Origin: a virus
DNA length: 64,000 bases
UHGV virus genome: UHGV-1440165
Direction: 5' to 3' (one strand)
Each line of letters starts with the position of its first letter. Within the stretch, counting starts at the first letter, position 1. Positions 1 through 55,774 of this stretch are shown here, piece after piece. The translations under genes were made by a program, and so were the position numbers. The notes under the pieces were generated by a model that did not search any database, was not told where the DNA came from, and was given only the letters and a program-made list of their open reading frames with translations.

Positions 1-310
1 TCTGTTCAATGGTTACATCCTTCGGCATGGCGTGGATGTAATAGATCGAGCCTTCGAAGTAGACGTCCACCAGTTCATCTGGTATCTCGACGCCACCACT
101 GGCATACTCTTCGATCATCCTGAACAGAGACTCTGGTTGCTCGCTGGCGATCTTATGCGTAACAGTCGCCGAAAGACCGTCGCCCGGTTTAACAGGCCTG
201 GTGTATTCAGTGAGGAATACATTATGGCCGCTGCCGATGATGTGCTCGGCGAATTTGGAGGACGCCTCAGCAGCGTTCTCCGCATGGTAAGAAACGACGA
301 CTGTAAACAT
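1..310 (-). CDS. partial CDS (N-terminal ~103 aa; remainder beyond window start), hypothetical protein
   Basis: Open minus-strand frame from ATG at 310-308 to position 1; start overlaps stop of upstream gene (TAATG); absent from ORF track because no stop inside window. Confidence 0.4.
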   Translation of the reverse strand, partial: MFTVVVSYHAENAAEASSKFAEHIIGSGHNVFLTEYTRPVKPGDGLSATVTHKIASEQPESLFRMIEEYASGGVEIPDELVDVYFEGSIYYIHAMPKDVTIEQ

Positions 311-852
311 TAGAACTCCAGGGTCAGAGGGGTTTCTGCGGACTTGTCGTAATCCGCGCCGCCAGCAGCGCGCAGACGATTGCGATCGTTCTTGCGTTTG
401 TGTGCCAGCATGTACGTCTCAATGTCGATCTCCATATAAGAACACGCAGCGTTCAGGAAGAACATGAGAGTCTCAACGCAAGGATCGTTCATGAACTGCC
501 CAAGGCGGTATGTAACATCGCGATGCCCGGCAACGTATGGTTTGAATCCTTCAATTAGGATTTCAAATTCTTCTTCGATCTCGCCTTTGGTCCGATCCAA
601 TAGCACGAAGCACAGCATGAAGTGAACCACGTCCACCAGTTCATAAACTGCGTTCGCATGATGAAACCCGATGTCATTGCCATAGACCTTCCAGTCACGG
701 GTAGTTTCGTCAAGGAACTCTGCCCACTCACGATAGATGGAGTTGATGACTGCGTTCTGACTCCATACGTTCTTCCACTCTTCCCCAAAGTAGGCCACGT
801 TGGTGGCCTTTTGGAGTTCGAGCAGGCTTTTGATATGCCCTGCTGTGATCAT
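310..852 (-). CDS. dNTP pyrophosphatase, T4 gp56 (dCTPase/dUTPase) family
   Basis: Segment YELVDVVHFMLCFVL resembles T4 gp56 FELVDIFHFVLNMFV; acidic all-alpha NTP-PPase-like composition; sits next to dNMP kinase as gene 56 does in T4. Confidence 0.55.
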   Translation of the reverse strand: MITAGHIKSLLELQKATNVAYFGEEWKNVWSQNAVINSIYREWAEFLDETTRDWKVYGNDIGFHHANAVYELVDVVHFMLCFVLLDRTKGEIEEEFEILIEGFKPYVAGHRDVTYRLGQFMNDPCVETLMFFLNAACSYMEIDIETYMLAHKRKNDRNRLRAAGGADYDKSAETPLTLEF

Positions 853-1418
853 TTACGTTCTCCGTAGAATTTAACGAACGGTGCCCAACCATCAAATGGA
901 TTGAGGAATTCGTAGTCCACTTTCATCTGGTCAATGAAAGCCTCTATATCGTCCTCTATGATACCAGCGCGGTCGGCCTTTGAAATGCGGGTGATAGGGC
1001 ATTTCGTACTCAGCGCCCATTCATATTCCTGAGGGGTGCGCAGATCGCTCACGATATAATGGACGTCAGGGTTCTGCTCTACCAGAGGAAGCTGGAAGCG
1101 CTTGAAGAATGCCAGGAACAGATCAGGCTGTACGTAACGCAAGCCCGTATCGCTGCCTAGATGAAGCCAGATCTGCCGTGGGGTTAAGCCCTTGGGGTTA
1201 TCAGGGTGGACGTAAGGAACGTCCTTCACGGCATCCTCCACCTCCGCTGGAAGCCATGGATAGATGAAGTTGGCAACCCGGCGCAGTTCGTCTGAGAACG
1301 AAAGGCGCTGGATATCCATATCGCCCTGTAGATGGTGATAGCTGATGAGGGACTCCAAACAGAAGTCCTTACCGGAGCGCTTGCGCCCCGTAAAGAATTC
1401 AAGGTTAGGATACATCAT
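849..1418 (-). CDS. deoxynucleoside monophosphate kinase (T4 gp1-like)
   Basis: N-terminal P-loop FFTGRKRSGKDF comparable to T4 gp1 FLSGVKRSGKDT; size 189 aa. Confidence 0.7.
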   Translation of the reverse strand: MMYPNLEFFTGRKRSGKDFCLESLISYHHLQGDMDIQRLSFSDELRRVANFIYPWLPAEVEDAVKDVPYVHPDNPKGLTPRQIWLHLGSDTGLRYVQPDLFLAFFKRFQLPLVEQNPDVHYIVSDLRTPQEYEWALSTKCPITRISKADRAGIIEDDIEAFIDQMKVDYEFLNPFDGWAPFVKFYGERK

Positions 1419-2464
1419 TCTTTATCACCCAGGAACTTAGGATCAACAATCTTGCGGTCAACCGGGGAATGGGTGAGCGCGACGTTCAGGGACTGGTCAC
1501 TGACGTTATCCAGATTGATGAGCTTACCACTCAGCTTGCACCACAGGCAGTATGCCATATCCAGAATTAACCCGGCATCGGCTCCGTGTTCGTGTAGAGT
1601 TTTCATAACGTCTAACCATGATGAACCTTTGGAAATCACTTCAACGATATCGGCGAACATGACTCGGATACGTGTTTGATTCCCAGGGACACCAAACAAA
1701 ATAGGGGAGAAGTAAGAACCCGTGTGGAATACACTGGTGGCAGGAGTAATTTTACCCAGCTGCTTCTGGCTGACTTCATTGTTGTAATAATGAAGGTTGT
1801 TAGAGAAGAGGCGGTACAGCCCAACTTCCACATTCAGCACCCTAGCGACGATCTCTTGGAGGATGGAGAATTCAATGAAATTGATTGAACTCATGCCCCA
1901 CAGAACATCCTGAGATCGGTTGATGACTGTTAGGTTCAGGCGACCATCCACGATAGAGAACAAAAGGGCTAGGTTACACACCATATCCTTGGTCTTTGGT
2001 TCCCCGCTTTCGTTGGACCAGATCAGACCAGAGTCCGAGTCAAGAGCAGGGTCATAGATGGTGAGGTATGCTTGGCGACTGTTTGGATTTTCTTTCAAGC
2101 GGCGAATCACACTGTCAATCTGACCATAGGCGTACAGGCGCGGTCCATAAGCAGCTCGCCATGTAGTGCCGTTATCAGAGAAGTTGACAGCGCGAGGTAA
2201 TACACGGGAAAGGAACTCAACGTCATTGCGCCCAGCAAGCACCCAGAAAGTCTCACCAATGGCAGCAACAGCAGAAGAGTTGCGCCCTTCCACGGATAAC
2301 CAACGGTCGCGTGGGTTCTGCACGGTGATCGTCACACCGTCAAGGAAGCGGGTGCCGTCAGTGTTGATCTCCGCGTTACCAGGATCAGATTCAATCCCGT
2401 GCTCACGGATAGCCAAGACAGCCTGTTTCAGCATGTCATTGTTGTTTATTGCTTTGATTTCCAT
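1415..2464 (-). CDS. thymidylate synthase-family enzyme, possibly a pyrimidine (dUMP) hydroxymethylase
   Basis: ThyA-like motifs (NPNSRQAYLTIYDP; nucleophile Cys in DMVCNLAL; RSQDVLWG); 349 aa is longer than canonical ThyA; RBS GGGAG upstream; TAATG coupling to neighbouring kinase. Confidence 0.6.
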   Translation of the reverse strand: MEIKAINNNDMLKQAVLAIREHGIESDPGNAEINTDGTRFLDGVTITVQNPRDRWLSVEGRNSSAVAAIGETFWVLAGRNDVEFLSRVLPRAVNFSDNGTTWRAAYGPRLYAYGQIDSVIRRLKENPNSRQAYLTIYDPALDSDSGLIWSNESGEPKTKDMVCNLALLFSIVDGRLNLTVINRSQDVLWGMSSINFIEFSILQEIVARVLNVEVGLYRLFSNNLHYYNNEVSQKQLGKITPATSVFHTGSYFSPILFGVPGNQTRIRVMFADIVEVISKGSSWLDVMKTLHEHGADAGLILDMAYCLWCKLSGKLINLDNVSDQSLNVALTHSPVDRKIVDPKFLGDKE

Positions 2465-3126
2465 TAATCGATACTCCCAAAATCACGACAGAGGAATGCC
2501 ATCACAGCCTGGTCTACTGTTAGACCGTGAGACTTCATCATACCTGCAGCCACCGTAGGGAACAAGCCCTTATGGCGCTGGCGGTGGTCTTGAACGCGCT
2601 CCCACTTCTCGACCACCAGGCTTTCATTGAAGTCCGCGCCGCCGTTGCGTGATTTAACACGGGCGATGCAGGTTTCAAGAGGCGTGTCCATGAAGAGCAC
2701 AACCAGTTCGCGCGGTGGGCGCGTCAGGCGAGGGATCCAGGAACTCAGCAGAGTTGAAGGAATGATGCCTTCGAAGATCACATCGTATCCCAGATACTCT
2801 GGCTGATCAGCGATGCTCAGGGCGAAGAGCATTTGTTCAGTATCCTTCAGGGAATCAACTCCCTTGGACTTCGACTTGTCATATTTGCCGATGCAGACCA
2901 CATTGAAAGAAGGGCAGACGGTCAGCATAATCTTTCCGTTGTGGGTCACGACATATGCCTGAGGATCCCTCTCCGCCAGCTGGGAAGGCACGGTAGATTT
3001 ACCGCTACCATTCGAGCCTTTGACGTAATAGAGTTGCCCTCGTGCTGGGTATATGCCCTTGACGACAGGCGGCTTAAAGAATGTGTGGACGGGGCGCTTC
3101 AACAGCCCCTTCAGGGAATAGGACAT
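2464..3126 (-). CDS. P-loop kinase (Walker A GSNGSGKST), candidate nucleotide/DNA 5-hydroxymethyl kinase
   Basis: Walker A motif; ORF-track start is TTG, ATG with GGAG RBS at 3126 preferred; translationally coupled to TS-family gene. Confidence 0.5.
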   Translation of the reverse strand: MSYSLKGLLKRPVHTFFKPPVVKGIYPARGQLYYVKGSNGSGKSTVPSQLAERDPQAYVVTHNGKIMLTVCPSFNVVCIGKYDKSKSKGVDSLKDTEQMLFALSIADQPEYLGYDVIFEGIIPSTLLSSWIPRLTRPPRELVVLFMDTPLETCIARVKSRNGGADFNESLVVEKWERVQDHRQRHKGLFPTVAAGMMKSHGLTVDQAVMAFLCRDFGSID

Positions 3127-3201
3127 AGACTGCTCCAATAAACAAAAGGAGCTGCTATTATAGCAGCCCCTTCATCTATTGAACAGCTTCTGAACTTAAA
3201 T

Positions 3202-4116
3202 TTAAGCAGCAGCTTTCGCTTCGGCCAGCGCCTGTGGCAGCCATTCATTGATCGCCTTAACCAGAGACTCAGCATCGGTCTCTTTGATTTTCTGGCGCTT
3301 GGTGAAGGACTTGCCGTTCACGTACAGGCTGAAGCCCCAGCCGCCGGAAACGATAGGCGCGACATCAACGTATGTGTTGGTGCGGGCATGCAGGTTATCC
3401 GGGTTGGCCAGTTCGGTGACCGGGAACTGGAACCAGCGCATGTCTGGGTTCACGTAGCTCAGGAAGACGCCTGGGACAACGCCTGCTTCAATAGCAGCCA
3501 GAATCGGACCGTGGGTAGATGCGCGAGCCGCTTCAACCATTTCTTCACGTTTGGTGTGGCGACGTTTACGCTCTTCAAGAGCGGCCTGCGGAGTGAGGGT
3601 CTTACCCTTCGCCGCTTCTTTCAGCATTGAGGAAGCCAGGGAACCCACTTTGGCGTCGGACGGTTGATCACCTTCAGCCAGAGCAGCATTCACCGCATCT
3701 TTGACGGCATCGGTTGGTTCCGCCGGATCAGCTGGCTCCTGTGCCGCGCCGTCAACGGTTTCAGCCGCTTCTTCACCACCTTCACTACCTGCCACGCCGC
3801 CAGCGTCGGCATTGGTGTTGTCGGCAGATACCGGGACGTCTTTGGTCACGTCTTCGGCGTCTTTCAGGGCTTGCTCGGAATCAGCCTGCTCTTTAGCACG
3901 AGCCAGCGCTTCGGCTTGCTCTTCCTGCTCTTCTTCGCTCAGGCTGGCGATAACTTCGAAGCCGTTGGCGGACTGAAGAACACCTTCCACCATACGGCGC
4001 AGGGTGACGTTGCCGATGATCAGGCCAGCTTCTTTGATTTCAGCCTGGATGGCAGAGACGTCTTTACCTTCAAGATCAAATTTAGAACCAGATTCTACAT
4101 GAAGAATATATGACAT
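3202..4116 (-). CDS. hypothetical protein with acidic low-complexity central region
   Basis: Internal ATG (MSYILHV) at 4116 preferred over ORF-track start; D/E/A-rich centre. Confidence 0.5.
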   Translation of the reverse strand: MSYILHVESGSKFDLEGKDVSAIQAEIKEAGLIIGNVTLRRMVEGVLQSANGFEVIASLSEEEQEEQAEALARAKEQADSEQALKDAEDVTKDVPVSADNTNADAGGVAGSEGGEEAAETVDGAAQEPADPAEPTDAVKDAVNAALAEGDQPSDAKVGSLASSMLKEAAKGKTLTPQAALEERKRRHTKREEMVEAARASTHGPILAAIEAGVVPGVFLSYVNPDMRWFQFPVTELANPDNLHARTNTYVDVAPIVSGGWGFSLYVNGKSFTKRQKIKETDAESLVKAINEWLPQALAEAKAAA

Positions 4117-4254
4117 AATAAAAACCCTTTCGTTATTAAGACCGTCTTCGCGGCATATTGCTGTTCTGACTGTGTAGTGAGAACATAATATACTGCATTT
4201 TTCATAGATGTAAACCACTTTTTATTGAAAAGAAGTTAACACCATCGTGTTAAA

Positions 4255-4280
4255 CAGCGCCCAGCCAAGCGGGGCGCGAA
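4255..4280 (-). terminator. GC-rich hairpin (GCGCCC...GGGCGC) downstream of 4323..5075
   Basis: Inverted repeat in intergenic region. Confidence 0.3.
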
Positions 4281-4322
4281 CTTGCGTGAATAATAACTTT
4301 CAACGTCGATATTGAAAACAAA

Positions 4323-5075
4323 TTATTCTTTGGTCAGATAGAAGTTCGGAACTTCAGGACATGCCTCTGGGAGATAGTACCCCACGACACCCTGCTTCAC
4401 TTTCTTCTCAATGTCATCACGGATTTTGCGAACAACTTCTTCCTTCTGCTCGTTGGCCATAACTTCCTCCATGGCACTGTACAGAGAATCAACGATGACG
4501 CTGACATAGTTGTGGATGGCGCGACAAGTGTTCTGGTCATAAACCATATCCGGATCGATCTTGAGATCAACCTGATCGCGTCCGACCAGCAAATGCCCGC
4601 CAGACACGTTAACAGTGTGTTTGAACACATCACTAGATTTCATGACCACGCCATCGGCCTGTGCCAGGTAGAACTCAGTTTTAGAGAAATTCTCCAGAAC
4701 TTCGGCCGGGAAATCGATTTGGATGTCACTACGGTGGCGGCCAAGGTAGTACAGGCAATGTGATAACTTGGAACACGCTTCTTGCGCCATCTTCATGTGC
4801 GCTTTGGCATGTTCATAACCAGCCAGGACGTCGCGGACAAAGTCTGCAACTTCTTGGTTTCCGTATTTGACTTCGTCTTCGAAGTCCATAGCAGTAGGAC
4901 TGTCCGGCTCAATACCCAGCATGTCGAACAGGTTGCGTTCGCGAACAGATTTACCCTGGCGGTCGAAGCCGAGTTTACAACCGACTTCAAACCCGGTTGG
5001 TTCGAAGGTGGTCAGTTTCACATCAAGGCGAGCTGGTGTAAAGTCCAGCCCGAACAGACGATATAGTTGTGACAT
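4323..5075 (-). CDS. hypothetical protein (250 aa)
   Basis: Long ORF in operon context. Confidence 0.55.
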   Translation of the reverse strand: MSQLYRLFGLDFTPARLDVKLTTFEPTGFEVGCKLGFDRQGKSVRERNLFDMLGIEPDSPTAMDFEDEVKYGNQEVADFVRDVLAGYEHAKAHMKMAQEACSKLSHCLYYLGRHRSDIQIDFPAEVLENFSKTEFYLAQADGVVMKSSDVFKHTVNVSGGHLLVGRDQVDLKIDPDMVYDQNTCRAIHNYVSVIVDSLYSAMEEVMANEQKEEVVRKIRDDIEKKVKQGVVGYYLPEACPEVPNFYLTKE

Positions 5076-5139
5076 GTTATAGCCTCATGGTTGAAGGAAT
5101 TACCCGTTCGCGAATTATCACTCGGAACGGGTTATAGAA

Positions 5140-5841
5140 CTATTTCTTGTGTACTCGGCGGGCATCTTTCCAGACAGACATCTGGCTCTGTTTCTGGAAG
5201 CGAGCGGTGCGCATGAAGAGCACGATTTCCCAGTATTGTGGCTCAATCTCATAAAGCTGAGAGCGGAACTGATCGGCGCGGTACAGCTTCACACAGTGAT
5301 TGTACAGCGGGTGGTTGGCGAAGCGCTTCAGGGCATCCCAGGTGAGTTTCAGACGCGTCTTTGAGCGGTATGCCCGTTCGTTGCGCAACTTGATCAGATC
5401 CTCGAACACCAACAGCCTGAGCTTCGGTGGCAGGTAGTGCATGTTGAGTCCCCAGAGATAGGTCACACCCCTCTCCCCGAAGTTAATGCCGTCGCCCTTC
5501 GCAAAGTTGAAGAAGAACACCAGTGGATACATGTCCCAGTACGGCAGTTCATTCTTCGTCAGCGCATCGTATTTGAAATAGAACATACGCCCGATCATGT
5601 ACCGCACACCCTGTACCGGGCGCTTGTGATCAGCGAACGCCTGCTTCATGTGGTTTGGCGACAGGTTTGCATCCTTGGACACACGTTCCATGAACCACAC
5701 GTGCGAACGGCGGATGTTGCGCTTCGCCTCTGGACCGAAGTGTTGACGGTACTTGCGGATGTAACGCTTCACCAACTCGGGGGCGTCCATCTCGGCCGGG
5801 AACAGCAACGGATCTTCTTCGCCAGCTGTGTTCTTTGCCAT
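5140..5841 (-). CDS. hypothetical protein (233 aa), aromatic-rich
   Basis: ORF with GGAG RBS directly upstream of ATG. Confidence 0.55.
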   Translation of the reverse strand: MAKNTAGEEDPLLFPAEMDAPELVKRYIRKYRQHFGPEAKRNIRRSHVWFMERVSKDANLSPNHMKQAFADHKRPVQGVRYMIGRMFYFKYDALTKNELPYWDMYPLVFFFNFAKGDGINFGERGVTYLWGLNMHYLPPKLRLLVFEDLIKLRNERAYRSKTRLKLTWDALKRFANHPLYNHCVKLYRADQFRSQLYEIEPQYWEIVLFMRTARFQKQSQMSVWKDARRVHKK

Positions 5842-5852
5842 TTGTCAACTCC

Positions 5853-5860
5853 TATAAATA
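5853..5860 (+). promoter_or_regulatory. T4-type late promoter box TATAAATA
   Basis: Exact TATAAATA ~35 nt upstream of the GTG start at 5895; gp55 late sigma homologue encoded in window. Confidence 0.5.
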
Positions 5861-5894
5861 ACAACAGTTATCATATTTAAGTGGAGTCCTCATC

Positions 5895-6842
5895 GTGGAA
5901 GACTATCGCAATTTCATCACCCAATTGTTGCAGCGCGGGATATCGCGGAAGAACCGTTTCCGCGTCACCATCCCCCTGCCACCGGGCGTGTTCGATTCAA
6001 ACGCCACCCTGAGCAATGACGGGGATGCTTACAAATCAAGTTCATCATCGTTTGGCGACTTGTTTAAGGAGTCAGCCCGTATTGTAAACGCTTTCTTTGG
6101 AGGGACAAACCAGACGGCGCGTTCCCTTCAGATGATGTGTATGGTCGCAGGTCTGCCGGGGGTCGGCGTCGACACCACCCCAATGAACAACAACGGCAAC
6201 CACATCAAGATGCCAAACAACAAGTCCAACGTCGATCTGGATCTAACATTCCTCATTGCCAACGACTACTATGAGAAGTCGGTCATGGACAAATGGAAGA
6301 ATCTGATCTTTGATCCGTACACAACTAAGATGGGTTATTACGAAGACTTCGTGACTGACATCTGTATCGAGCAGATGGATACAGAAGACCAGGTTGTGCA
6401 CCGGGTGTACATCGTGGAGGCGCATCCGATCAACTTCAGCACGATTGACCTTGACAAGGGTGCAACAGATCAGTTCAACCAATACAACATCACATTCTCT
6501 TACAACAAAGTGTTATCGGAGACTGAGTATGAAACACGCAGCCTTGCCAGCGATTTTCTTCCTCTTGGGATTACTGACGCTCTTGCCAGTGGAGATTGGG
6601 AAACTGCGGCCTCAAAAGCCGGGCAACTTTATCGCAAGGTGAAGGAAGGCAACTTCACAGGGGAAGCGCTCCTGGCGTACAAGCAGCTGGATCAACTGGT
6701 AAACAATCTGGCTGGCATCAGCCTGCAGGACTTCGAGCGCATCTCTATCGGCATCTCTCGTGACATCATGGGGAATGATAACCTGACTGCAGCTGAAAAG
6801 ACCAGCCTGCTGGGTATCCTCCAGGACGTCATGGGCAAATAA
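5895..6842 (+). CDS. baseplate tail-tube family protein (gp48/gp54-like)
   Basis: N-terminal NRFRVTIP resembles gp19/gp54 family NLFQVEIS; GTG start with AAGTGGAG RBS; late promoter upstream; terminator downstream. Confidence 0.45.
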   Translation: MEDYRNFITQLLQRGISRKNRFRVTIPLPPGVFDSNATLSNDGDAYKSSSSSFGDLFKESARIVNAFFGGTNQTARSLQMMCMVAGLPGVGVDTTPMNNNGNHIKMPNNKSNVDLDLTFLIANDYYEKSVMDKWKNLIFDPYTTKMGYYEDFVTDICIEQMDTEDQVVHRVYIVEAHPINFSTIDLDKGATDQFNQYNITFSYNKVLSETEYETRSLASDFLPLGITDALASGDWETAASKAGQLYRKVKEGNFTGEALLAYKQLDQLVNNLAGISLQDFERISIGISRDIMGNDNLTAAEKTSLLGILQDVMGK

Positions 6843-6864
6843 AAAGCCCCTCACGGGGCTTTGT
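6841..6864. terminator. bidirectional rho-independent terminator (AGCCCCTCACGGGGCT)
   Basis: Perfect stem flanked by A-run and T-run; stop codon of the minus-strand membrane gene lies inside the loop. Confidence 0.65.
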
Positions 6865-7255
6865 CTTCTGAATACTTCTTGTATTCTTGTCTAGTTCCGT
6901 ACTCCACTATGCGATACAACAGAATCACAACAGCATGGGACACCGCCAAGAAGGTGTAACCTGCCCAAGCAAGCAGAATGAAAATGATGATCGCCTTCAC
7001 AGTTCTTGCAACCCATTTGTACGGCTTCCCCAACTCTGTCATCTTCAACAACGCGCTCGGGTCGGTCTTGGCATGGGAAGAAACGCAGAGATAGAGAAAA
7101 GACAGAACTATCAGCAGAATAATATTCAGACAAGTAACTGCTACTGCGACTGTCGGGAAAGGCGTTATTCCCAATGGTGCGATAGCGGATAGAAGAGATG
7201 AGACCAACAATAAGAAGATCAGTTGTCGAAGAACAGACAAGAACAAAGTTTTCAT
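6851..7255 (-). CDS. integral membrane protein (about 4 TM segments)
   Basis: Hydrophobic segments throughout 134 aa. Confidence 0.55.
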   Translation of the reverse strand: MKTLFLSVLRQLIFLLLVSSLLSAIAPLGITPFPTVAVAVTCLNIILLIVLSFLYLCVSSHAKTDPSALLKMTELGKPYKWVARTVKAIIIFILLAWAGYTFLAVSHAVVILLYRIVEYGTRQEYKKYSEDKAP

Positions 7256-7269
7256 GGTATAGATGCCTC

Positions 7270-7296
7270 AGAGAAAGCCCTCCGAAGAGGGCTTTG
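7270..7296 (-). terminator. rho-independent terminator (AAAGCCCTCTTCGGAGGGCTTT) after SSB gene
   Basis: Stem-loop immediately downstream of 7301. Confidence 0.6.
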
Positions 7297-7300
7297 TGGT

Positions 7301-8344
7301 TTAGTTGTTTTTCAGGAACTGCTCGAATTCTTCAATTGAACCAGTTTCTTTCGGGTTCGGTTGAGCACCCGGATTGTTCACAGCGGCCTGGGACGGCTGA
7401 GCCTGCTGTTGGTTCAGGCTGTCTTGAGCAGTTGGCTGCTGATTGACAGACTGTTGAGCCGGAGCCTGGTTGGTAGGGGCATGGGCCATAGTGGCCGCAC
7501 CACCTTCAACCAGAGGCTGGCCGTCAGGGATTGCCAGCACTTTGCGCAGACGTTTTTCCAGATCTTCGTAGCTCTTGAAGTTCGCCGGATTGAAGAACTC
7601 AAACAGGCTGTGTTCACGAGACCAAACGTCTTCCATGTAGGCTTCGTCTTCGCTCAGTGGAGCCGGAGCAGCCCAGCTGACGTTGGAGAAGTTGGCCACC
7701 AGACCTTCCCAGTTCCCGAACTTCTTCTGCTCGCCGAAGAGCTTGAGGTTCAGGTTCGCACCTTCCCACAGATCGAACGGGTCGAATTTAGGGTCGGTTG
7801 GGAACTTAGGATTCTGCGCCTGGTCCAGGATTTTCTTGATGGCGTTACCAAACTCCAGCAGGAAGACCTTGCCGTTGTTTTCCGGTACGTTGACATCTTC
7901 GATCACCAGGATGTTGGCGTAGTATTTGGTGTCCGGCAGACGTTTCTTCAGCACGTCCTTCAGCTTTTCGTCGTTCGTTTCTTTCTGTTGCGCCCACAGC
8001 GGACGGTCATGGTCACGCACCGGATCGTCGTTGCCGAACGTCTGAGGTGAGTTCTCAATGTACCAACCACCAGCGCCCTGGAACTGGTGCTTCATGATCA
8101 TGGCGCAAGGGGTCAGGATCTGATCTTTATCGATCGTACCTTCTTCCTGTGCCTTGAGGTCTACCAGCGGAACTGGCAGGAAGCGGATGGTGTTCTGAGA
8201 GATACCATCTTTGTTCCACGTCCATTTCCAGATGCGAGGATCCTTCTGGAAACCAGACTTCTGACCTTGCTGAGCCAGACGCGCTTGCATCGCGTCGGTC
8301 TGCTGGCCACGGGACTGTTTCAGACGATCGAATAAATTACCCAT
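7301..8344 (-). CDS. single-stranded DNA-binding protein (T4 gp32-like)
   Basis: NTIRFLPVP matches gp32 AVIRFLP region; size 347 aa; acidic/Q-rich C-terminal tail. Confidence 0.75.
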   Translation of the reverse strand: MGNLFDRLKQSRGQQTDAMQARLAQQGQKSGFQKDPRIWKWTWNKDGISQNTIRFLPVPLVDLKAQEEGTIDKDQILTPCAMIMKHQFQGAGGWYIENSPQTFGNDDPVRDHDRPLWAQQKETNDEKLKDVLKKRLPDTKYYANILVIEDVNVPENNGKVFLLEFGNAIKKILDQAQNPKFPTDPKFDPFDLWEGANLNLKLFGEQKKFGNWEGLVANFSNVSWAAPAPLSEDEAYMEDVWSREHSLFEFFNPANFKSYEDLEKRLRKVLAIPDGQPLVEGGAATMAHAPTNQAPAQQSVNQQPTAQDSLNQQQAQPSQAAVNNPGAQPNPKETGSIEEFEQFLKNN

Positions 8345-8441
8345 TTCTTAATTCCTCTGTTTCCGCCCCTCGGGGCTATTCTGTTGCATGTATTTTCAGT
8401 TTGTTTCAAGCGGGGTAATTATACCCCGATACTACATTGAA

Positions 8442-8681
8442 TTAACCCTTAAGCACTTGATTCGCTGGGTCAATTTCAATAATGTCATACACGTCTGAGA
8501 ACGTCTTTTTGCCCTCATCGTGCGTATGGTACTCAACCACATATGAGCGACCATCAGGGGTGACATAACGAATACGATCCGTGTTGTCGGCGTTTTCGTT
8601 CAGACTACCCACGCGCCAGCGCATTGAGCCTGGCAGGAACTCTTGGACTTTCATTGCACTGTAAATTGATTCTTTGCTCAT
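8442..8681 (-). CDS. hypothetical protein (79 aa)
   Basis: ORF. Confidence 0.45.
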   Translation of the reverse strand: MSKESIYSAMKVQEFLPGSMRWRVGSLNENADNTDRIRYVTPDGRSYVVEYHTHDEGKKTFSDVYDIIEIDPANQVLKG

Positions 8682-8688
8682 AATATGC

Positions 8689-8934
8689 CTACACTAATTT
8701 CTTCGATTTCAGCACATCTTTTATCAGACGTGCATCGGAGCACTCAGCTGTCAGTCGGGACAGAAGAGGTGCTGTGATCATTTTTCTGACCTTCGTTTCG
8801 TCTATGTCGTTTTCTTCACAGACGGCGACGAGGGTCTCAAGGATTGTTTCCCTGGTACGGGCGGCGCGGAGCAGAACGGCTTCTGAGAAGGAGTCTGCGG
8901 TCAGCACCTGGGCGGGTGATTTATCGTCAGACAT
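8689..8934 (-). CDS. hypothetical protein
   Basis: Internal start MSDDK preferred (track start overlaps neighbour). Confidence 0.4.
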   Translation of the reverse strand: MSDDKSPAQVLTADSFSEAVLLRAARTRETILETLVAVCEENDIDETKVRKMITAPLLSRLTAECSDARLIKDVLKSKKLV

Positions 8935-9172
8935 CGATCGTGTTCTCCTTGCCAGAACCCTTCTTGATCGTGCGCAGAACGTCCTTGAAACCGTCCGGCG
9001 CAGACTGTGGTCCCTTAACCCCAGACACGATCTTAGGAGCACCCACCACCATTTTAATCTCCCCTCCACACTCAGTGCAAGGGTTGGATTCAGGCTTGTG
9101 GCGATCAGCGATAGATTTACGCAATGTCATCTCGTTGCCACAGCCTTTGCATTGATAATCATACAGCGGCAT
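8927..9172 (-). CDS. zinc-ribbon protein (FmdB-like CxxC...CxxC)
   Basis: YDYQCKGCG...CTECGG. Confidence 0.5.
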   Translation of the reverse strand: MPLYDYQCKGCGNEMTLRKSIADRHKPESNPCTECGGEIKMVVGAPKIVSGVKGPQSAPDGFKDVLRTIKKGSGKENTIDV

Positions 9173-9473
9173 GGAACACCCCCACAGTTGTCAGCACAAA
9201 ACGAACCATAATGATAACCAGCAGCGCCACTGTAGAAAACACGATGCGTTTGATCATTTTGTCACGGATCTGAATGAACTGATAGGAGAGGATGGCCTCT
9301 GCCTGTTGATCAGCACGCACGTTCGTGTCACGATGAGGCGACAACGTGTAGAAGTTGATCTGGTACACATATGCGTGAACCAGAGTGAAGAATGTCTTCA
9401 CCCAGACCAACACAACCACCAACAACAAGGCGAACGTCAAAAAGTTCGCCAACAACCAGTAATCGACCATCAT
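9159..9473 (-). CDS. small membrane protein
   Basis: Two hydrophobic helices. Confidence 0.45.
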   Translation of the reverse strand: MMVDYWLLANFLTFALLLVVVLVWVKTFFTLVHAYVYQINFYTLSPHRDTNVRADQQAEAILSYQFIQIRDKMIKRIVFSTVALLVIIMVRFVLTTVGVFHAAV

Positions 9474-10060
9474 ACACCTCTGTTGAAGTCTGGATTATTC
9501 TCAATGAAGTAAGAGCCGCAAGACATGATTGCAAACGAATCCACGAGGTCATCGATTGGCTTGGGATCCTTAACTTCCAACATGTCCATTATACCGCGCA
9601 TATTAACATTGAACAGCGACTCGAAGTGGGAGATCATGGCGAGTTTATCCGCGTTGCCCTTGTCCGTGAACATCTTTTTCACATGTGTCGGCGTGACGAT
9701 CTGGAAGTCGAAATTGTTCCGGCGCAGGGCTTGCTTCAAAAGAGAAGTGTTCTCTGCGGTCTGACAGATATTGTTGGAGTTCTTTGAGTTCCCCATGGCA
9801 TACCCTTCGAGGGTAATGACATCAGGCTTCTCAGTCAGCAGTACAGCCTCAGCCCATTTGCAAATGTTGTAGAAGCGCTCTTCTGGCGTCTCCCACTTCG
9901 GTTGCTTGAGGATCAGGATGTTCTGGCGAATTTGGCTGCAGTACTTCTCCACGGTGTAATACGCGTAGAAGTTCAGGTGGTCAAAATCAAGAGGGTCTTT
10001 GTCGTCCCAGATACAGATGGACGGGCAACCGTATGAGTAGTCAATTCCGCAATATTTCAT
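9470..10060 (-). CDS. RuvC-like Holliday junction resolvase
   Basis: N-terminal CGIDYSYG and C-terminal DDLVDSFAI resemble RuvC catalytic motifs. Confidence 0.5.
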   Translation of the reverse strand: MKYCGIDYSYGCPSICIWDDKDPLDFDHLNFYAYYTVEKYCSQIRQNILILKQPKWETPEERFYNICKWAEAVLLTEKPDVITLEGYAMGNSKNSNNICQTAENTSLLKQALRRNNFDFQIVTPTHVKKMFTDKGNADKLAMISHFESLFNVNMRGIMDMLEVKDPKPIDDLVDSFAIMSCGSYFIENNPDFNRGV

Positions 10061-10111
10061 GTAAATAGCCCATAACGAAGTTTCATTGGTGTATGGGCTA
10101 TTTACGCCGGA

Positions 10112-10621
10112 TTAACGGGTGATGATTTTACCTTCAGGCAGGATCAGGCCTGGATGGTCCAGGTTCTTCTGCATCTGCTGGATGCTCTGGAGGATCACGG
10201 TGGTGTCAATATGGCGTTTCACTTTACGCGCTTCCTCGCCATAAGAAATCTGCCCCTGGGGGTCGATGTAATGAGCTGACACAACCCGCAGATCATAGCC
10301 ACATTTCAACATATACTTGGCAATGTTGCTAACTTCCAGCGACAGTGATTCACCATCCACGCCGATGTTAGCCGAATAGATGACCGCGCCGTTTTCTGCC
10401 GCCTCTGGATCGAACATCACCATACCAGCGATCGTCTGGATCAAAGGAACTCCCTCGGTATCGAAAGCTACCTGATCGAACGCGCCGATGAACTCATCCG
10501 GCACTTTACCTTCGGCGTCAGAAACTGTATGTTTCATCAGGTCCAGAACGTGTTGCTGTACTTCCTCAATCGGAGCACGTTCAACGGGTTTTTCGTTTTG
10601 CATTACTTTTCTCCAGTTCAT
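10112..10621 (-). CDS. hypothetical protein
   Basis: Start at MNWRK with GGAG RBS preferred. Confidence 0.45.
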   Translation of the reverse strand: MNWRKVMQNEKPVERAPIEEVQQHVLDLMKHTVSDAEGKVPDEFIGAFDQVAFDTEGVPLIQTIAGMVMFDPEAAENGAVIYSANIGVDGESLSLEVSNIAKYMLKCGYDLRVVSAHYIDPQGQISYGEEARKVKRHIDTTVILQSIQQMQKNLDHPGLILPEGKIITR

Positions 10622-11111
10622 AATCGCGCTCCACAACATATTGGTAGACACGCATCTTAATATAGTCGGCACCGCCTGCTGAAGACAGCACCCTCCATCC
10701 ACTACTGAGGGCATTCATCTTATATTGACCAACACCCTCTTGAAAATAACTTTTAATCTGTTCCAGCTTTCGCCCACGATGATAATAAGAGATGAGTTCG
10801 CCGATGACAATACATTCTGGATAATGTTTGTCCAATGTATTGATGTTGCGGTGGACATACACGGGCAAAACTTCCTCATCATCGATAGGGCTGTACAATG
10901 GGTCGACGATGATTACATTCAGACCATAACGCAGCAGATCTTTGACGCCCAGTCGACAGAACTTATAATCTTCGTGCTTCATCGCCACATATTCGATATT
11001 CTCTTTCTGAGCATAATCCGTCAAGAAAATAAAGAAGTCTGTGTTGGGATCTGGATATTGTATCGACAATTCCTTGCCGATTTCACTAAAACAAAATCCG
11101 CGCATTTTCAT
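10581..11111 (-). CDS. hypothetical protein (176 aa)
   Basis: ORF. Confidence 0.5.
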   Translation of the reverse strand: MKMRGFCFSEIGKELSIQYPDPNTDFFIFLTDYAQKENIEYVAMKHEDYKFCRLGVKDLLRYGLNVIIVDPLYSPIDDEEVLPVYVHRNINTLDKHYPECIVIGELISYYHRGRKLEQIKSYFQEGVGQYKMNALSSGWRVLSSAGGADYIKMRVYQYVVERDYELEKSNAKRKTR

Positions 11112-47574: not shown

Positions 47575-49239
47575 TTAGATTTGTGAGGCCAGTTCTGCCA
47601 CCAGAGGAGCAGCACGAACACGCGCATCTTCCAGAGTCTGAGTGTTGAAGAACTTGCCATCACGGTACACCAGTTGGTGTTGGTTGTCGGCGTCTTGCAC
47701 CTGATCAAAGGTGATGCCGTCAACCAACACTAGTTTACCCTGAGAGTCTTTAATGACTTTAAGGAAACCACGCGCAGACTTTTTAGTCCCGCCTTTGTCG
47801 GTCTTCGGCTCTTTGAAGATCTCGCGGAATTCACCGTTCACCTTACCAGCCGTCGCTTTCACTGCCGTTCCAGTACTGTCACGGGTGTTCATCTGGTAGG
47901 TGTAGGAACCAATACCGAAGACCACGTTAATGGAAGCGAAGTTCCGGCCAGCCAGACGACCAAAGATCTGGTCTTCACGTGCCAATGTGATAGAGTCACC
48001 GTAGATCAGACCGATGTGATCGTCCAACAGGAAGTGGCCAGTCTCAGTTTGAGTACCGCCAAAGATCTCCCACAGGCGCTGAATAGAGCCGACTGCTTCA
48101 GAACGGCTGATGATATTACTGTCGTCTGCCATCAGAGAGTTGATCGTACCTTCGCCTGTGATCAGGTGATAGGTGTTCGTCTCTTCGATGTGGATGACTT
48201 CGGTGCTGCTGGACACGCCGCTGATGTTCAGCATAGCGCGGTCTTTGAACCCCTCGATGCGGTAGCCGCCGACGATGTGAACTGGGTCGCCAGAGTCAGG
48301 GCGGATCACGACTTTGCCGTTGCGTGCCATGATAATGTCTTTCAGGCGAGGGAGATAGTCGTCGATGACCTGCCAATAGTCCCACGCATCCGACACAATG
48401 CTGACGATGCCATCAGGATACACGTCCTGCACCAGGCGACGGAAGGTTTCGAATTCTCCATTCTTCGTACCCATGCACATCACGGCGTGTTCGGTGGCTG
48501 CAACGGAGCCAGCAACGACATAGTCTTCATCGATATCCGCGCCGTAATACTCTTCAACGAAGTCCAGGGCAGGGTTGGTGTCAGTGCCTTTGAAGAACAC
48601 CAGATGGCCAGAACCGGAAGACGCCGCGTCATGCCATCCGCTCATACCACGGAAGGAGAAGTCGTGGCCTTGGTAATCGATGAACCAATGGTCCGGTGAC
48701 ACGCCTGTGGCGATAGCGGCTTTCACCATCAGTGCCTTGTAATGCAGGGCGATGGTGGCGTTCGTCATGGGCTTCCAGATCTCAGAGCTGAACACAGTCT
48801 CCAGATAGTTGGTCAGCCAGTAGAACTCCGGCAAGGTGTTGAACATCACATACACCGGAACGCCATACGGGCACATGGTGCCTTCGGGTAGAGCACGGAC
48901 TTCGATAGGCAGATAACCGAGGTCATGCAGGGCTTCGATATGCTCTGTGCCAACACGACCTGGACCCAGTACTTTGTTCATGCGACGGGCATACTTCTTC
49001 AACACCTTGGCCTTCGGGCGCTGGAAGAACGCTTCGTCAAACAGTTCGTGGAACCAGGTCATGAAACCCTGGATGCCCCAGACCACCACGCCGTTCTTCG
49101 GCAGGTGAGAGTTGAATAATTTGTTGGAACGCGGAGTCCCGTTGGAGAACACCAGCTCACTACCTTCAGGGAACTGATAGATGTGCCCTGATTTGTAGAA
49201 GTCGATTGCATGAATTGGGTCTAAGTGGCGCATGCTCAT
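47575..49239 (-). CDS. nicotinamide phosphoribosyltransferase-family enzyme (NadV/NAMPT-like; candidate NARP1 Namat)
   Basis: Full-length NAMPT-like sequence (554 aa) read from the translation; no single motif checked. Confidence 0.75.
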   Translation of the reverse strand: MSMRHLDPIHAIDFYKSGHIYQFPEGSELVFSNGTPRSNKLFNSHLPKNGVVVWGIQGFMTWFHELFDEAFFQRPKAKVLKKYARRMNKVLGPGRVGTEHIEALHDLGYLPIEVRALPEGTMCPYGVPVYVMFNTLPEFYWLTNYLETVFSSEIWKPMTNATIALHYKALMVKAAIATGVSPDHWFIDYQGHDFSFRGMSGWHDAASSGSGHLVFFKGTDTNPALDFVEEYYGADIDEDYVVAGSVAATEHAVMCMGTKNGEFETFRRLVQDVYPDGIVSIVSDAWDYWQVIDDYLPRLKDIIMARNGKVVIRPDSGDPVHIVGGYRIEGFKDRAMLNISGVSSSTEVIHIEETNTYHLITGEGTINSLMADDSNIISRSEAVGSIQRLWEIFGGTQTETGHFLLDDHIGLIYGDSITLAREDQIFGRLAGRNFASINVVFGIGSYTYQMNTRDSTGTAVKATAGKVNGEFREIFKEPKTDKGGTKKSARGFLKVIKDSQGKLVLVDGITFDQVQDADNQHQLVYRDGKFFNTQTLEDARVRAAPLVAELASQI

Positions 49240-50090
49240 TTTACACGTCCTGTATTTTCAGTTTTGAAAGGAAGACCGTCGGCGGTGATGTTCTCCCACC
49301 AGACAGTGTCGGCATACACAGCATCGTAGATCCCGTCGAAAACAGAGAGACCTTTGCTGAAGATGCCATGGGTAACGAAGAGCGTCATGTGCTTAGGCTT
49401 GTGCTTCTGAAGCTCTTTACCCAGCTCAACAAACGTGCGCCCACCGTCGCAGATATCATCAACCACAACCAGATAGCGGTCTTTGATCAGTTCAGGGTTT
49501 GTAATACTCACCCCAATGATTTCACCAGTCTTGGTGTCACGGTTCTTGTGTCCGTAGACAACAGGAACGCCATCCAATGACAGGCTGAGGGTTTCGGTCT
49601 TCTTCGCCGCGCCGCCGTCAGGGGCTACCAGCACAGCATTGTTCCCACGGATGAACCAGCCCAGATACTGGCGCACGATGTGATCTTGTGGGACCACATG
49701 GACGTTGTTGATCAGGGAAGACACAACATGGCTGTGAGGGTCTTTGATCGCCACGCGGTCAAAGTTCATGTTGTTGATGAACTCAGCCGCCCACTTCACG
49801 GACAGAGGCTCGCCGAAGTCGCAATGGCGGTCCTGGCGAGCATACGGGAAGTAAGGGATATACGCATGGAAGGTAGTCAGACGGTCCACGTTACCCAGGC
49901 CGCGCACGGCGTTTACCAGAAGCGCCAGCTCAATGAAGTCGGCTGATGATTTGATGTGAGCATCAATCACCACGTTCTGGACGTGACCGACAGGGATGCC
50001 AGCCTTTTGGATCTTGATATGTTCCTCACCACCTGGGAAGGTGAAGTGCTTGTAGAACACATCTTGGTCGTTCAATTTCAAACGAAACAT
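49236..50090 (-). CDS. ribose-phosphate pyrophosphokinase-family enzyme (Prs-like; candidate NARP1 Adps)
   Basis: PRPP-binding motif VVVDDICDGGRT; 284 aa; ATGA-coupled to NAMPT-like gene. Confidence 0.75.
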   Translation of the reverse strand: MFRLKLNDQDVFYKHFTFPGGEEHIKIQKAGIPVGHVQNVVIDAHIKSSADFIELALLVNAVRGLGNVDRLTTFHAYIPYFPYARQDRHCDFGEPLSVKWAAEFINNMNFDRVAIKDPHSHVVSSLINNVHVVPQDHIVRQYLGWFIRGNNAVLVAPDGGAAKKTETLSLSLDGVPVVYGHKNRDTKTGEIIGVSITNPELIKDRYLVVVDDICDGGRTFVELGKELQKHKPKHMTLFVTHGIFSKGLSVFDGIYDAVYADTVWWENITADGLPFKTENTGRVK

Positions 50091-53611: not shown

Positions 53612-54832
53612 TTATTCAGGTTTCTTCAAACGATCAAGGAGATTGACAGAGCTGCGACCGAGCACAACTTCATCACAGCGCTTCTTGTAAGCACCACTTC
53701 CGTCATAACCGACCTTACCCCGAGGCTTATCTCCCCGTTGAACGGCTTCTACGCAGCGGGTGTACTTGCTCAGTTCACAGAACATGTTCTCCAGCTGCAT
53801 GACGTTCATACACTGATCTTCCGGGGCTTCAGCCGACCAGAACTGCTCCCGGACATAACCATAGTCCCCGTAAATCGAATCCTGGTGGTCACGCAGCCAG
53901 AAGATACATTCTTCATGCGTCATGCCGTCCTTGTTCAGGAACAACAGGTCGATCCCAGCGCGGCAACCCGGTCCAGCGATAGTGAAATGGTTCTCACTGA
54001 ACGGATACTCAGGAATGTACGTGAAGTCCACCCAGATCTGATAGGCCAGGAATGGACCCAAGCCTTCGATTTCGTCGTACATGGCCTGGTAGACTTCATC
54101 CGGAGATTCGCATTCCAGCAGCCGCTCGAAGTAATCAGGGTGCTTGTTGACGAATGCCCTCAGAGAACGGATGACGCGCATCGGCATGTACGGTTCCCAA
54201 CCCTCAATGGTGTAGAAGTCCGGCTCTGCTTCAGCAATTGCCTTCGCTTCTTTATAATCCATATTCTGGGTTGAACCGTCTTTGCAGATCAGATTCACCA
54301 TCATCCCACCGAAGCGCTGCTCCTTGTGGTTGACAACCAGCTCAGGGAAAGCCAGGCATTGCTTCAGGCCGCCCGTGTTGAAAGCATTGGTGAAGACTTT
54401 GCCGCCGTTGGCCTCGAACTTCTGTAAACGTTCGCGGGTCGCGTCAAGGTTGATCTTGGCGAAGTCGGAGATCGTCATCGCGCCGCCGATAGCCTGGATC
54501 GGATCCCAGAGGTTAAACATGCGGAACAACACGCAGTTGAACATCTTATCCGGCATAGACAGCGCATCGTTGTTAACGATGTTGTTGATTAGGTTGAGAG
54601 ACTGCCTGTCGTGCTCTCTCCGGACGTTGCAGAACTTGACCTGCCGTAGTATGGCATTATCCGTCCAAGGAGCAGGAAGACGCTGGACGTCCTTCTTAAC
54701 GTGGATCTTGTATCGCTCGCTCATCCATTCGTAAGAAAGACGACGATGAAACGGACTGAGCACGGGCTTGGCGGACTTGATTTTATCTTCGCGGACACCA
54801 CAATAAGGGATGTCACGGGCTTTATCTTTCAT
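53612..54832 (-). CDS. hypothetical protein (406 aa), candidate DNA-modification enzyme
   Basis: Start MKDKAR with GAGGA RBS; family not confirmed. Confidence 0.5.
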   Translation of the reverse strand: MKDKARDIPYCGVREDKIKSAKPVLSPFHRRLSYEWMSERYKIHVKKDVQRLPAPWTDNAILRQVKFCNVRREHDRQSLNLINNIVNNDALSMPDKMFNCVLFRMFNLWDPIQAIGGAMTISDFAKINLDATRERLQKFEANGGKVFTNAFNTGGLKQCLAFPELVVNHKEQRFGGMMVNLICKDGSTQNMDYKEAKAIAEAEPDFYTIEGWEPYMPMRVIRSLRAFVNKHPDYFERLLECESPDEVYQAMYDEIEGLGPFLAYQIWVDFTYIPEYPFSENHFTIAGPGCRAGIDLLFLNKDGMTHEECIFWLRDHQDSIYGDYGYVREQFWSAEAPEDQCMNVMQLENMFCELSKYTRCVEAVQRGDKPRGKVGYDGSGAYKKRCDEVVLGRSSVNLLDRLKKPE

Positions 54833-54901: not shown

Positions 54902-55774
54902 TTAATCGATACGGGTCAGCTGGGTGATCGATGGAGTGATCGGAGTAGCGACGAACACGCGGACGTTAGCTTTCCATTTACCCCAGATCAGTGGCACGTC
55001 TGGCATGTTCTCTTTGTCAAACACAAACACCGGAACATAGCTTTCCATCGCTGTATCAGCATGCGCCTGGAAGCCAGGTTCCATGTACTGCATGATAGAA
55101 CGGACGAAGTCGAATGGGGCGAACCCGACACCAGCTTGTTCGTTGAAGCCGATCTGACCAGAATCGGCAGTGGCGGTCAGGATGATCTCAGTGATCTGAT
55201 GCTTAGGGGTAGCCGTCAGCATATCGGAGAAGTCAGGCTCTTTGAAGGTGGCCATGTTCTTCAGGAACTTCCCAGCCGGGTACTCTTTACCGTCGACGGT
55301 GATGGTGTCAACCACCTTGATGCAAGCCTGAGGGAATTCGCCTTCGATGCGCAGACTTTCACGTGGGAAGCCTTTATCGTAATAGTAGTCCAGCGCTGGC
55401 ACAACTTCATCCATGCTGCGGACGAACTTGCTCATGTTAGAGGCATACACGCGCTGTAAGCATTCATCGCCGTCGAAACCAGCAATGTGCGCCACGCCGT
55501 CGTTGACAGTTGTGATGTCGCCCTGGGCATCCATGATCTGGCGCATGATGTCTTTGGTGTCTACGATGGCAGGGGCGTCGCTCGGCTTAGGATTGACCGT
55601 CAGAGTCAAAGTCACATCGTGGTCAAAGAACGCCGCTTCCAGCAGTTCACGAGTTTCTTCCAGCACCAGTTTGGCCTGGTTGCGGATCTTTGCGAAGTTG
55701 GGCGACGTCACATCGCCCTTTGCATTACCGAAAGCCAGATTCAGTTTCACGTTCTTGTCAAATGTAGTTGTCAT
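54902..55774 (-). CDS. hypothetical protein (290 aa)
   Basis: Start MTTTFDK. Confidence 0.45.
   Translation of the reverse strand: MTTTFDKNVKLNLAFGNAKGDVTSPNFAKIRNQAKLVLEETRELLEAAFFDHDVTLTLTVNPKPSDAPAIVDTKDIMRQIMDAQGDITTVNDGVAHIAGFDGDECLQRVYASNMSKFVRSMDEVVPALDYYYDKGFPRESLRIEGEFPQACIKVVDTITVDGKEYPAGKFLKNMATFKEPDFSDMLTATPKHQITEIILTATADSGQIGFNEQAGVGFAPFDFVRSIMQYMEPGFQAHADTAMESYVPVFVFDKENMPDVPLIWGKWKANVRVFVATPITPSITQLTRID

Follow-up and report, generated by a model that had tools for sequence, protein, structure and literature searches.

A translationally coupled gene module in the phage genome stretch UHGV-1440165 with a highly probable role in ViI-type thymidine hypermodification

We describe a group of genes found at the start of a 64,000-nucleotide stretch of the virus genome UHGV-1440165; this whole stretch is referred to below as the window. 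Four open reading frames (ORFs) lie on the minus strand between positions 310 and 3126, each overlapping its neighbour at the end, and their products resemble enzymes with which phage ViI and its relatives build hypermodified thymidine into their DNA. The four genes, starting from the 5' end of the group, are the following:

2464-3126, minus strand: predicted 5-hydroxymethyl-deoxyuridine (5-hmdU) DNA kinase (5-HMUDK), 220 amino acids (aa), ortholog of ViI gp67; PF18748, Walker A motif GSNGSGKST.
1415-2464, minus strand: putative dUMP hydroxymethylase of the thymidylate synthase (TS) superfamily, 349 aa; nucleophile C163, further D160, N195, Y106, R183/S184/D186 and H225/Y227.
849-1418, minus strand: dNMP kinase of the T4 gp1 type, 189 aa, P-loop GRKRSGKD; phrog_139, 91% identity to the ViI ortholog.
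310-852, minus strand: all-alpha NTP pyrophosphohydrolase (dUTPase_2 / T4 gp56 family), 180 aa; PF08761 and phrog_173, 64% identity to the ViI ortholog.

The junctions can be read directly in the sequence. The stop of the kinase gene and the start of the 349-aa gene overlap by 1 nt in a TAATG at 2464, the latter gene passes into the 189-aa gene through an ATGA at 1415-1418, and a second ATGA at 849-852 connects the 189-aa and 180-aa genes, both with 4-nt overlaps. Every one of the four ORFs has a strong family match (phrog_173 at 2e-40 for the 180-aa protein, phrog_139 at 1.4e-46 for the 189-aa protein, phrog_3676 at 4e-162 for the 349-aa protein and PF18748 at 1.8e-108 for the 220-aa protein), and because of this we regard them as genes and not as chance ORFs. 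The kinase ORF appears in the ORF listing as 2464-3138, i.e. 224 aa counted from a TTG, but the true start is predicted to be the ATG at 3126, which gives 220 aa, because a GGAG lies 6 nt upstream of it and the N-terminus MSYSLKG is identical to that of the ViI protein. An earlier, unaided reading of the sequence (the original prediction) had placed four co-oriented, translationally coupled genes here, with 3126 as the end coordinate of the group; the ORFs and their overlaps bear this out, and both motifs that it quoted can be found, DMVCNLAL (containing C163) and the Walker A sequence GSNGSGKST.

The 220-aa protein matches PF18748 (HMUDK_HMUD1) with 360.9 bits against a cut-off of 27, its residues 18-212 covering profile positions 1-195 of 196. 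It is 89% identical to ViI gp67 (YP_004327432, Vi01_061c) in a gapless alignment over 220 aa, the two genes are syntenic, and the Walker A motif is the same in both proteins. ViI gp67 phosphorylates 5-hmdU in DNA in vitro and gives the same phosphorylated nucleotide as M6 gp54 (PMC8989533). Judged by its sequence the 220-aa protein belongs to the 5-hmdU DNA kinases, the activity itself having been shown on the ViI ortholog.

The 349-aa protein was compared residue by residue with ViI gp66, the M6 enzyme, the SPO1-type gp29 (represented by the ortholog of Okubovirus Goe10), T4 gp42, MilA and E. coli ThyA, the reference sequence of the last being identical to PDB 1aob. The catalytic core of TS is kept, as C163, R183/S184/D186, Y106 and H225/Y227 correspond to C146, R166/S167/D169, Y94 and H207/Y209 of the E. 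coli enzyme (EcTS). An Asp at position -3 from the catalytic Cys has been proposed as the signature of hydroxymethylation, where it activates the substrate water; the D145N variant of T4 dCMP hydroxymethylase (dCH) is inactive, and TS carries Leu143 (PMC6400193). The 349-aa protein has D160-M-V-C163, and the Asp at this position is common to the SPO1-type enzyme, the M6 enzyme, T4 gp42 and MilA, as opposed to the L-A-P-C of EcTS. The catalytic Cys is followed by N164, compared to His147 in EcTS. Residue N195 aligns with the uracil-specifying N177 of EcTS, while T4 gp42 (D179) and MilA have an Asp there. In TS the C-terminal tail seals the active site for hydride transfer (PMC6400193). This tail is missing from the 349-aa protein, which has instead an unrelated C-terminal extension of about 110 aa, as do the SPO1-type (383 aa) and M6 enzymes; the extension explains the unusual length of the protein.

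Sequence searches group the protein with the hydroxymethylases as well. The match to PF00303 amounts to 58 bits and covers residues 67-234 only, and none of the seven NCBIfam models for ThyA equivalogs comes near its cut-off (the best, TIGR03283, 60.6 vs 174.55 bits; the others 16-59 vs 108-427 bits). The top match in the PDB is MilA, a CMP 5-hydroxymethylase (1.3e-17), followed at a distance by the best TS chain (6auj, 4.2e-9) and the remaining TS structures at about 1e-6 or weaker. Pairwise blastp scores decrease from the M6 enzyme (135 bits) through the SPO1-type enzyme (118), MilA (91) and EcTS (56) to T4 gp42 (38). When phages are searched with tblastn, the Ackermannviridae are followed by M6-like, SPO1-like and other candidates at 1e-25 to 1e-42, and T4-type td and gp42 trail at about 1e-6 to 1e-8; the M6-like relatives are phages with 5-(2-aminoethyl)-deoxyuridine (5-NedU), and the SPO1-like gp29 is annotated as deoxyuridylate hydroxymethyltransferase. 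The PHROG families give the same ranking: the 349-aa protein hits phrog_3676, then 5131 (SPO1-type, 207 bits) and then 160 (94 bits), for the SPO1-type enzyme family 5131 ranks ahead of 3676, and T4 gp42 falls in 160. From sequence and context together there is a strong case that the 349-aa protein is a dUMP hydroxymethylase.

The two remaining enzymes are related to T4 proteins at the family level. T4 gp1 belongs to the same phrog_139 (1.8e-65), and the G-x-K-R-S-G-K-D P-loop of the two kinases aligns. For PF08761 the 180-aa protein scores 33.4 bits and T4 gp56 25.4 bits (cut-off 22.9), and both are also members of phrog_173, T4 gp56 at 6e-39. Direct BLASTP against the T4 proteins yields motif-level similarity only (E=0.008 for gp56, restricted to the ELVD-x-x-HF motif, and E=0.003 for gp1), so profile families are needed to confirm these relationships. 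By analogy with phages containing 5-hydroxymethyluracil (PMC8989533, PMC3184105), the substrate of the 189-aa kinase is presumed to be 5-hmdUMP and the 180-aa pyrophosphatase is presumed to be a dUTPase/dTTPase.

We consider it highly probable that the module represents the pre-replicative half and the first post-replicative enzyme of a thymidine hypermodification pathway of the ViI type. In this pathway the all-alpha NTP pyrophosphatase would convert dUTP, and probably dTTP, to the monophosphates, which would supply dUMP and keep both U and T out of the DNA. The 349-aa enzyme would transfer the methylene group of methylene-tetrahydrofolate onto C5 of dUMP via Cys163, whereupon a water molecule activated by Asp160 would take the place of the hydride, giving 5-hmdUMP and tetrahydrofolate. 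The gp1-type kinase would then produce 5-hmdUDP and the nucleoside diphosphate kinase of the host 5-hmdUTP, to be incorporated by the phage polymerase. In the replicated DNA, the P-loop kinase would phosphorylate the 5-hydroxymethyl group of 5-hmdU and so create a leaving group. A serine:DNA transferase and a pyridoxal phosphate (PLP)-dependent decarboxylase, encoded elsewhere in the genome, would complete the conversion to 5-(2-aminoethoxy)methyl-deoxyuridine (5-NeOmdU) at a fraction of the T positions, and leftover 5-hmdU would become canonical T. The present analysis shows how the genes are built, which families and ortholog groups they belong to and which diagnostic residues they carry. 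That the kinase is active, how the pathway continues downstream and which modified base the virion contains was established by others, working with orthologs. We infer what the pyrophosphatase and the dNMP kinase act on, that the 349-aa enzyme hydroxymethylates dUMP and that this phage has the downstream genes.

Two further genes of the window have counterparts in ViI that are likewise conserved:

53612-54832, minus strand: ortholog of ViI gp160 (aGPT-Pplase clade 1; named '5-hmdU DNA kinase, helical domain' in Pfam); tblastn 82%, PF18723 at 9.3e-83, phrog_2396.
54902-55774, minus strand: MazG-like pyrophosphatase, ortholog of ViI gp161 (Vi01_131c), adjoining the gp160 ortholog; tblastn 61%, phrog_2144 at 1.6e-125.

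The gp160 ortholog is one of the post-replicative components of the pathway. The MazG-like protein, for which no Pfam match was found, is possibly a second sanitiser of the nucleotide pool.

Several points weigh against assigning the module to this pathway. Searches of the 64-kb window with the ViI proteins (tblastn) found no orthologs of gp226, gp243 or gp247. The second half of the dCH signature, a Ser/Thr at position -2 from the catalytic Tyr, is absent from the 349-aa protein, which has A104 there. In the literature we found neither an assay of an enzyme of this phage or of any Ackermannviridae TS homolog nor a nucleoside analysis for any Agtrevirus or Limestonevirus. As to the second of these points, the Ser/Thr-x-Tyr motif is also missing in the dUMP enzymes of the SPO1 type (Ala) and of M6 (Gly), and it is present in T4 gp42 (Ser) and MilA (Thr). 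Because both reference dUMP enzymes are without it, the motif seems to be specific to cytosine enzymes, and we dropped it as a criterion for uracil enzymes. Concerning the missing orthologs, the nearest relative of the window, Salmonella phage pSal-SNUABM-02 (MT857002), encodes a gp247-type amino acid:DNA transferase (89% identity, PF18724), the PLP enzyme gp226 (92%) and kinase 2, gp243 (47%, PF18747). By analogy with such relatives this phage likely possesses the complete 5-NeOmdU pathway. Kinase 2 of MT857002 (positions 2788-4386 of the region that we retrieved) is 532 aa long and has an N-terminal extension of 235 aa that is not found in ViI gp243 (304 aa). Two genes away from it, at 4701-5480 of that region, MT857002 encodes a 5'-deoxynucleotidase of the NT5C family, and we speculate that this enzyme could act as a dTMPase.

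The alternative that survives best accepts the module as described but holds that in a phage of the Aglimvirinae lineage the final base, or the extent of modification, differs from the 5-NeOmdU of ViI. In its favour, the literature examined gave no direct nucleoside data for Agtrevirus or Limestonevirus, the kinase 2 of the nearest relative is both distant from ViI gp243 and extended, and members of the family do differ in how much they modify (about 40% in ViI, 16.4% in phiHS2). Nevertheless, the enzymes of the nearest relative that fix the chemistry, the serine:DNA transferase and the PLP decarboxylase, are near those of ViI (the 89% and 92% given above). Measurements of 5-NeOmdU exist only for Kuttervirus, for the ViI-like Vibrio phage 1.255.O and for a Taipeivirus (bioRxiv 2026.05.19.726188), and it is the same base in all of them, so we regard a deviating base or extent as quite unlikely. 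A related and more speculative idea, which we also hold to be improbable, is that the phage contains a hypermodified thymidine or a modification pattern unlike 5-NeOmdU, and/or that the PF18723 protein, alone or with its MazG-like neighbour, converts 5-hmdU or 5-phosphomethyl-deoxyuridine (5-PmdU) in the DNA to canonical thymine, a step that these phages have to carry out.

A more conventional explanation would be that the 349-aa protein works as a normal thymidylate synthase and makes dTMP, that the kinase acts on something else and that the DNA is canonical. The label 'thymidylate synthase' in Pfam, PHROG and most database records favours this, as does the conserved catalytic core with its Cys, RS-D motif, Asn, Tyr and H-Y. 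The diagnostic positions speak against it, namely Asp160 in place of Leu143, Asn for His after the Cys and the lack of a sealing C-terminal tail (PMC6400193), and so do the searches, in which all ThyA equivalog cut-offs were missed by far and hydroxymethylases came out closer than any TS. Besides, the neighbouring gene encodes the ortholog of a proven 5-hmdU DNA kinase that would otherwise be without a substrate, and phage CBA120 does not incorporate thymidine (PMC3184105). With these arguments combined, an ordinary TS appears very improbable. The original prediction had correctly singled out an unusually long TS-family enzyme with a Cys nucleophile in DMVCNLAL, and its view of the P-loop kinase as fitting a hypermodification pathway is confirmed by the full-length PF18748 match and the 89% identity to the validated ViI gp67; the gp56-like and gp1-like assignments hold at the family level. 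Its statement that a plain thymidylate synthase could not be excluded from sequence was too cautious in view of the Asp at Cys-3, the missing TS tail, the grouping with hydroxymethylases and the failed ThyA cut-offs. The profile comparison of ThyA versus hydroxymethylase clades that it proposed as a check places the protein far below the ThyA equivalogs, with the SPO1-type family 5131 second-best in PHROG.

The remaining two readings have a negligible probability. According to the first, the 349-aa protein is a dCMP hydroxymethylase like that of T4 and the module replaces C, not T; the combination of a pyrophosphatase, a dNMP kinase and a TS homolog does parallel T4 gp56, gp1 and gp42, but the base-specifying residue is Asn195 as in uracil enzymes, where T4 gp42 has D179 and MilA an Asp, T4 gp42 is the weakest match of all, and CBA120 contains no substitution by 5-hydroxymethylcytosine (hmC) (PMC3184105), so that we rejected this reading on account of N195. 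The second, which takes the 220-aa protein for a terminase small subunit, goes back to a phrog_800 match of that name (1.7e-69) and to RefSeq, which gives the name to the ViI, Ag3 and further orthologs, and is in our opinion an annotation error, given that ViI has a separate small terminase adjoining its large terminase Vi01_162c, that kinase activity has been demonstrated for ViI gp67 and that PF18748 is matched over its full length. The phrog_800 profile has 511 positions, of which the kinase covers 3-220 and the helical domain of the gp160 type 355-481; as the two match separate parts, the profile fits the architecture of SP10 gp186, a fusion of kinase and helical domain (PMC5889632), rather than a terminase, and it appears from these alignments to have been built around such a fusion.

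The surroundings of the four genes of the thymidine hypermodification module contain two more features:

1-310, minus strand: fifth coupled gene, truncated by the window edge, for an ACT-like phage protein; PF24021 (ACT_phage) at 4e-38, phrog_3839, TAATG junction.
3145-3173, minus strand: terminator-like hairpin with a 13-bp stem, TATAAT in the loop region and a T-rich tail (terminator scan and sequence).

The fifth gene, co-oriented with the others, opens with the TAATG at 310 and runs past the edge of the window. Both nearest relatives have an ortholog at the same position, as does ViI (Vi01_057c). Small-molecule ligands are what ACT domains typically recognise, and we speculate that the product might be a regulator of the nucleotide module. 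On the other side, the hairpin sits between the stop of the upstream gene (3202) and the start of the kinase gene, where, as a predicted terminator, it probably marks the 5' boundary of the module; over the whole region, terminator-like sites show no excess compared to shuffled sequences. A scan for sigma-70 promoters showed no enrichment either, and no minus-strand candidate was found directly upstream of the kinase gene or between the hairpin and the ATG.

The gene upstream of the hairpin (3202-4218, minus strand) is listed as an ORF of 338 aa with a long acidic, Ala/Glu-rich middle part; since the match to phrog_3905 spans residues 35-338, its probable start is Met35, at about position 4116. 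Further away, a 134-aa ORF at 6851-7255 (minus strand) looks hydrophobic and has no Pfam match; it lies in a stretch (6865-7273) for which Yersinia phage CAU_YEP3 (PQ863687) has no nucleotide match. A two-gene insertion at 47575-50090 (minus strand), also not found in CAU_YEP3, encodes a protein of the nicotinamide/nicotinate phosphoribosyltransferase family (NAMPT; PF04095, 3e-31) and a ribose-phosphate pyrophosphokinase-like protein (RPPK; PF00156/PF13793). It resembles the variable NAMPT/RPPK pair of Agtrevirus phages, which has been mentioned alongside host defence systems that deplete NAD+ (PMC11721090). A tRNA scan of the window found none.

The module as such is already known: it is the ortholog set of a described system that has been predicted explicitly for the whole family, and it is ordinary for Ackermannviridae. 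As early as 2011, Kutter and coworkers observed no incorporation of 3H-thymidine by CBA120, and in their comparison the 'TS' of this phage, of ViI and of AG3 grouped with the dUMP hydroxymethylases; they also noted the adjacent dNMP kinase and suggested that the dUTPase acts on dTTP too (PMC3184105). Lee et al. (2018) counted AG3, LIMEstone and SKML-39 as phages with a 5-HMUDK and remarked that this kinase and dUMP hydroxymethyltransferase occur together (PMC5889632), and in 2021 the enzymology of the kinase, the serine:DNA transferase and the PLP decarboxylase followed (PMC8989533). The hypermodification genes are conserved in all Ackermannviridae (PMC6336734; PMC11721090), the paper on phage PP35 adding that the structure of the modification was yet to be determined (PMC6336734). 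As studies of ViI and M6 had elucidated the pathway in the years 2011 to 2021, no new question is opened here; what novelty is left concerns the identity and extent of the modification in the Aglimvirinae branch and the role of the gp160-type protein. In practical terms, the annotation 'thymidylate synthase' should be changed to dUMP hydroxymethylase and 'terminase small subunit' to 5-hmdU DNA kinase. The DNA of the phage should be refractory to many restriction enzymes, and effects on sequencing and cloning are likewise expected, which is relevant to any use of the phage in biocontrol or therapy.

With respect to its relatives, a megablast search with positions 1-6000 of the window retrieved 278 phage records, nearly all of them from Ackermannviridae. 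Over this region the nearest records are pSal-SNUABM-02 (Agtrevirus, Aglimvirinae; 96.7%) and CAU_YEP3 (95.1%), and CAU_YEP3 aligns collinearly with the window over the full length of the latter (86-96% identity, several indels). Since no record is identical, we regard the window as another isolate of a well-sampled family, and a placement in the subfamily Aglimvirinae can be inferred from the best genus-assigned record (Agtrevirus). The full set of hypermodification genes is present in pSal-SNUABM-02, and the hydroxymethylase of CAU_YEP3 is 99.4% identical to that of the window. A difference from both relatives is that they carry a 573-bp gene for an HNH endonuclease between the kinase and hydroxymethylase genes (positions 5490-6062 and 4286-4858, respectively, of the two regions retrieved), whereas the window has none and keeps at this place the 1-nt TAATG overlap of ViI. 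A further difference, from CAU_YEP3, is found in the middle of the pyrophosphatase gene, where positions 448-606 have no nucleotide match to that phage although the identity reaches 93-96% on either side (63% for the complete proteins). Because both the middle of the pyrophosphatase and the C-terminus of the hydroxymethylase (1415-1741) are locally hypervariable, mosaic exchange is suggested.

In ViI itself (Kuttervirus) the genes Vi01_058c-061c have the same order and orientation and the same overlaps of 4, 4 and 1 nt; in the ViI region that we retrieved they occupy positions 8056-8601, 8598-9167, 9164-10204 and 10204-10866. The pyrophosphatase, dNMP kinase, hydroxymethylase (gp66) and 5-HMUDK are 64%, 91%, 68% and 89% identical to their ViI counterparts, respectively. 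This identity is unevenly distributed in the hydroxymethylase, where residues 1-240 are 83% identical but the C-terminal third only 33%, and the middle of the pyrophosphatase is divergent here as well.

It is instructive to extend the comparison to phages that modify their DNA in other ways. The SPO1-type gp29 (Goe10) and the M6 enzyme (about 350 aa) share with the 349-aa enzyme the motifs K-D-x-x-C-N-L and N-R-S-x-D-x-x-W-G, the uracil-specifying Asn and the long C-terminal extension, at an identity of 34-35% (E=1e-34 to 1e-40) and, in PHROG terms, as family 5131 next to family 3676. SPO1, however, stops at 5-hmdU and has no 5-HMUDK. The T4 system follows a like logic with gp56 (dCTPase/dUTPase), gp1 and gp42, and its pyrophosphatase and dNMP kinase belong to the same protein families as those of the window. 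Still, the two systems differ in several respects. Firstly, the target of T4 is cytosine, as specified by D179, and that of the window uracil, as specified by N195. Secondly, the T4 genes are dispersed, whereas those of the window overlap in one unit. Finally, T4 glucosylates hmC, while the pathway encoded in the window would, by analogy with ViI, phosphorylate the hydroxymethyl group in the DNA.

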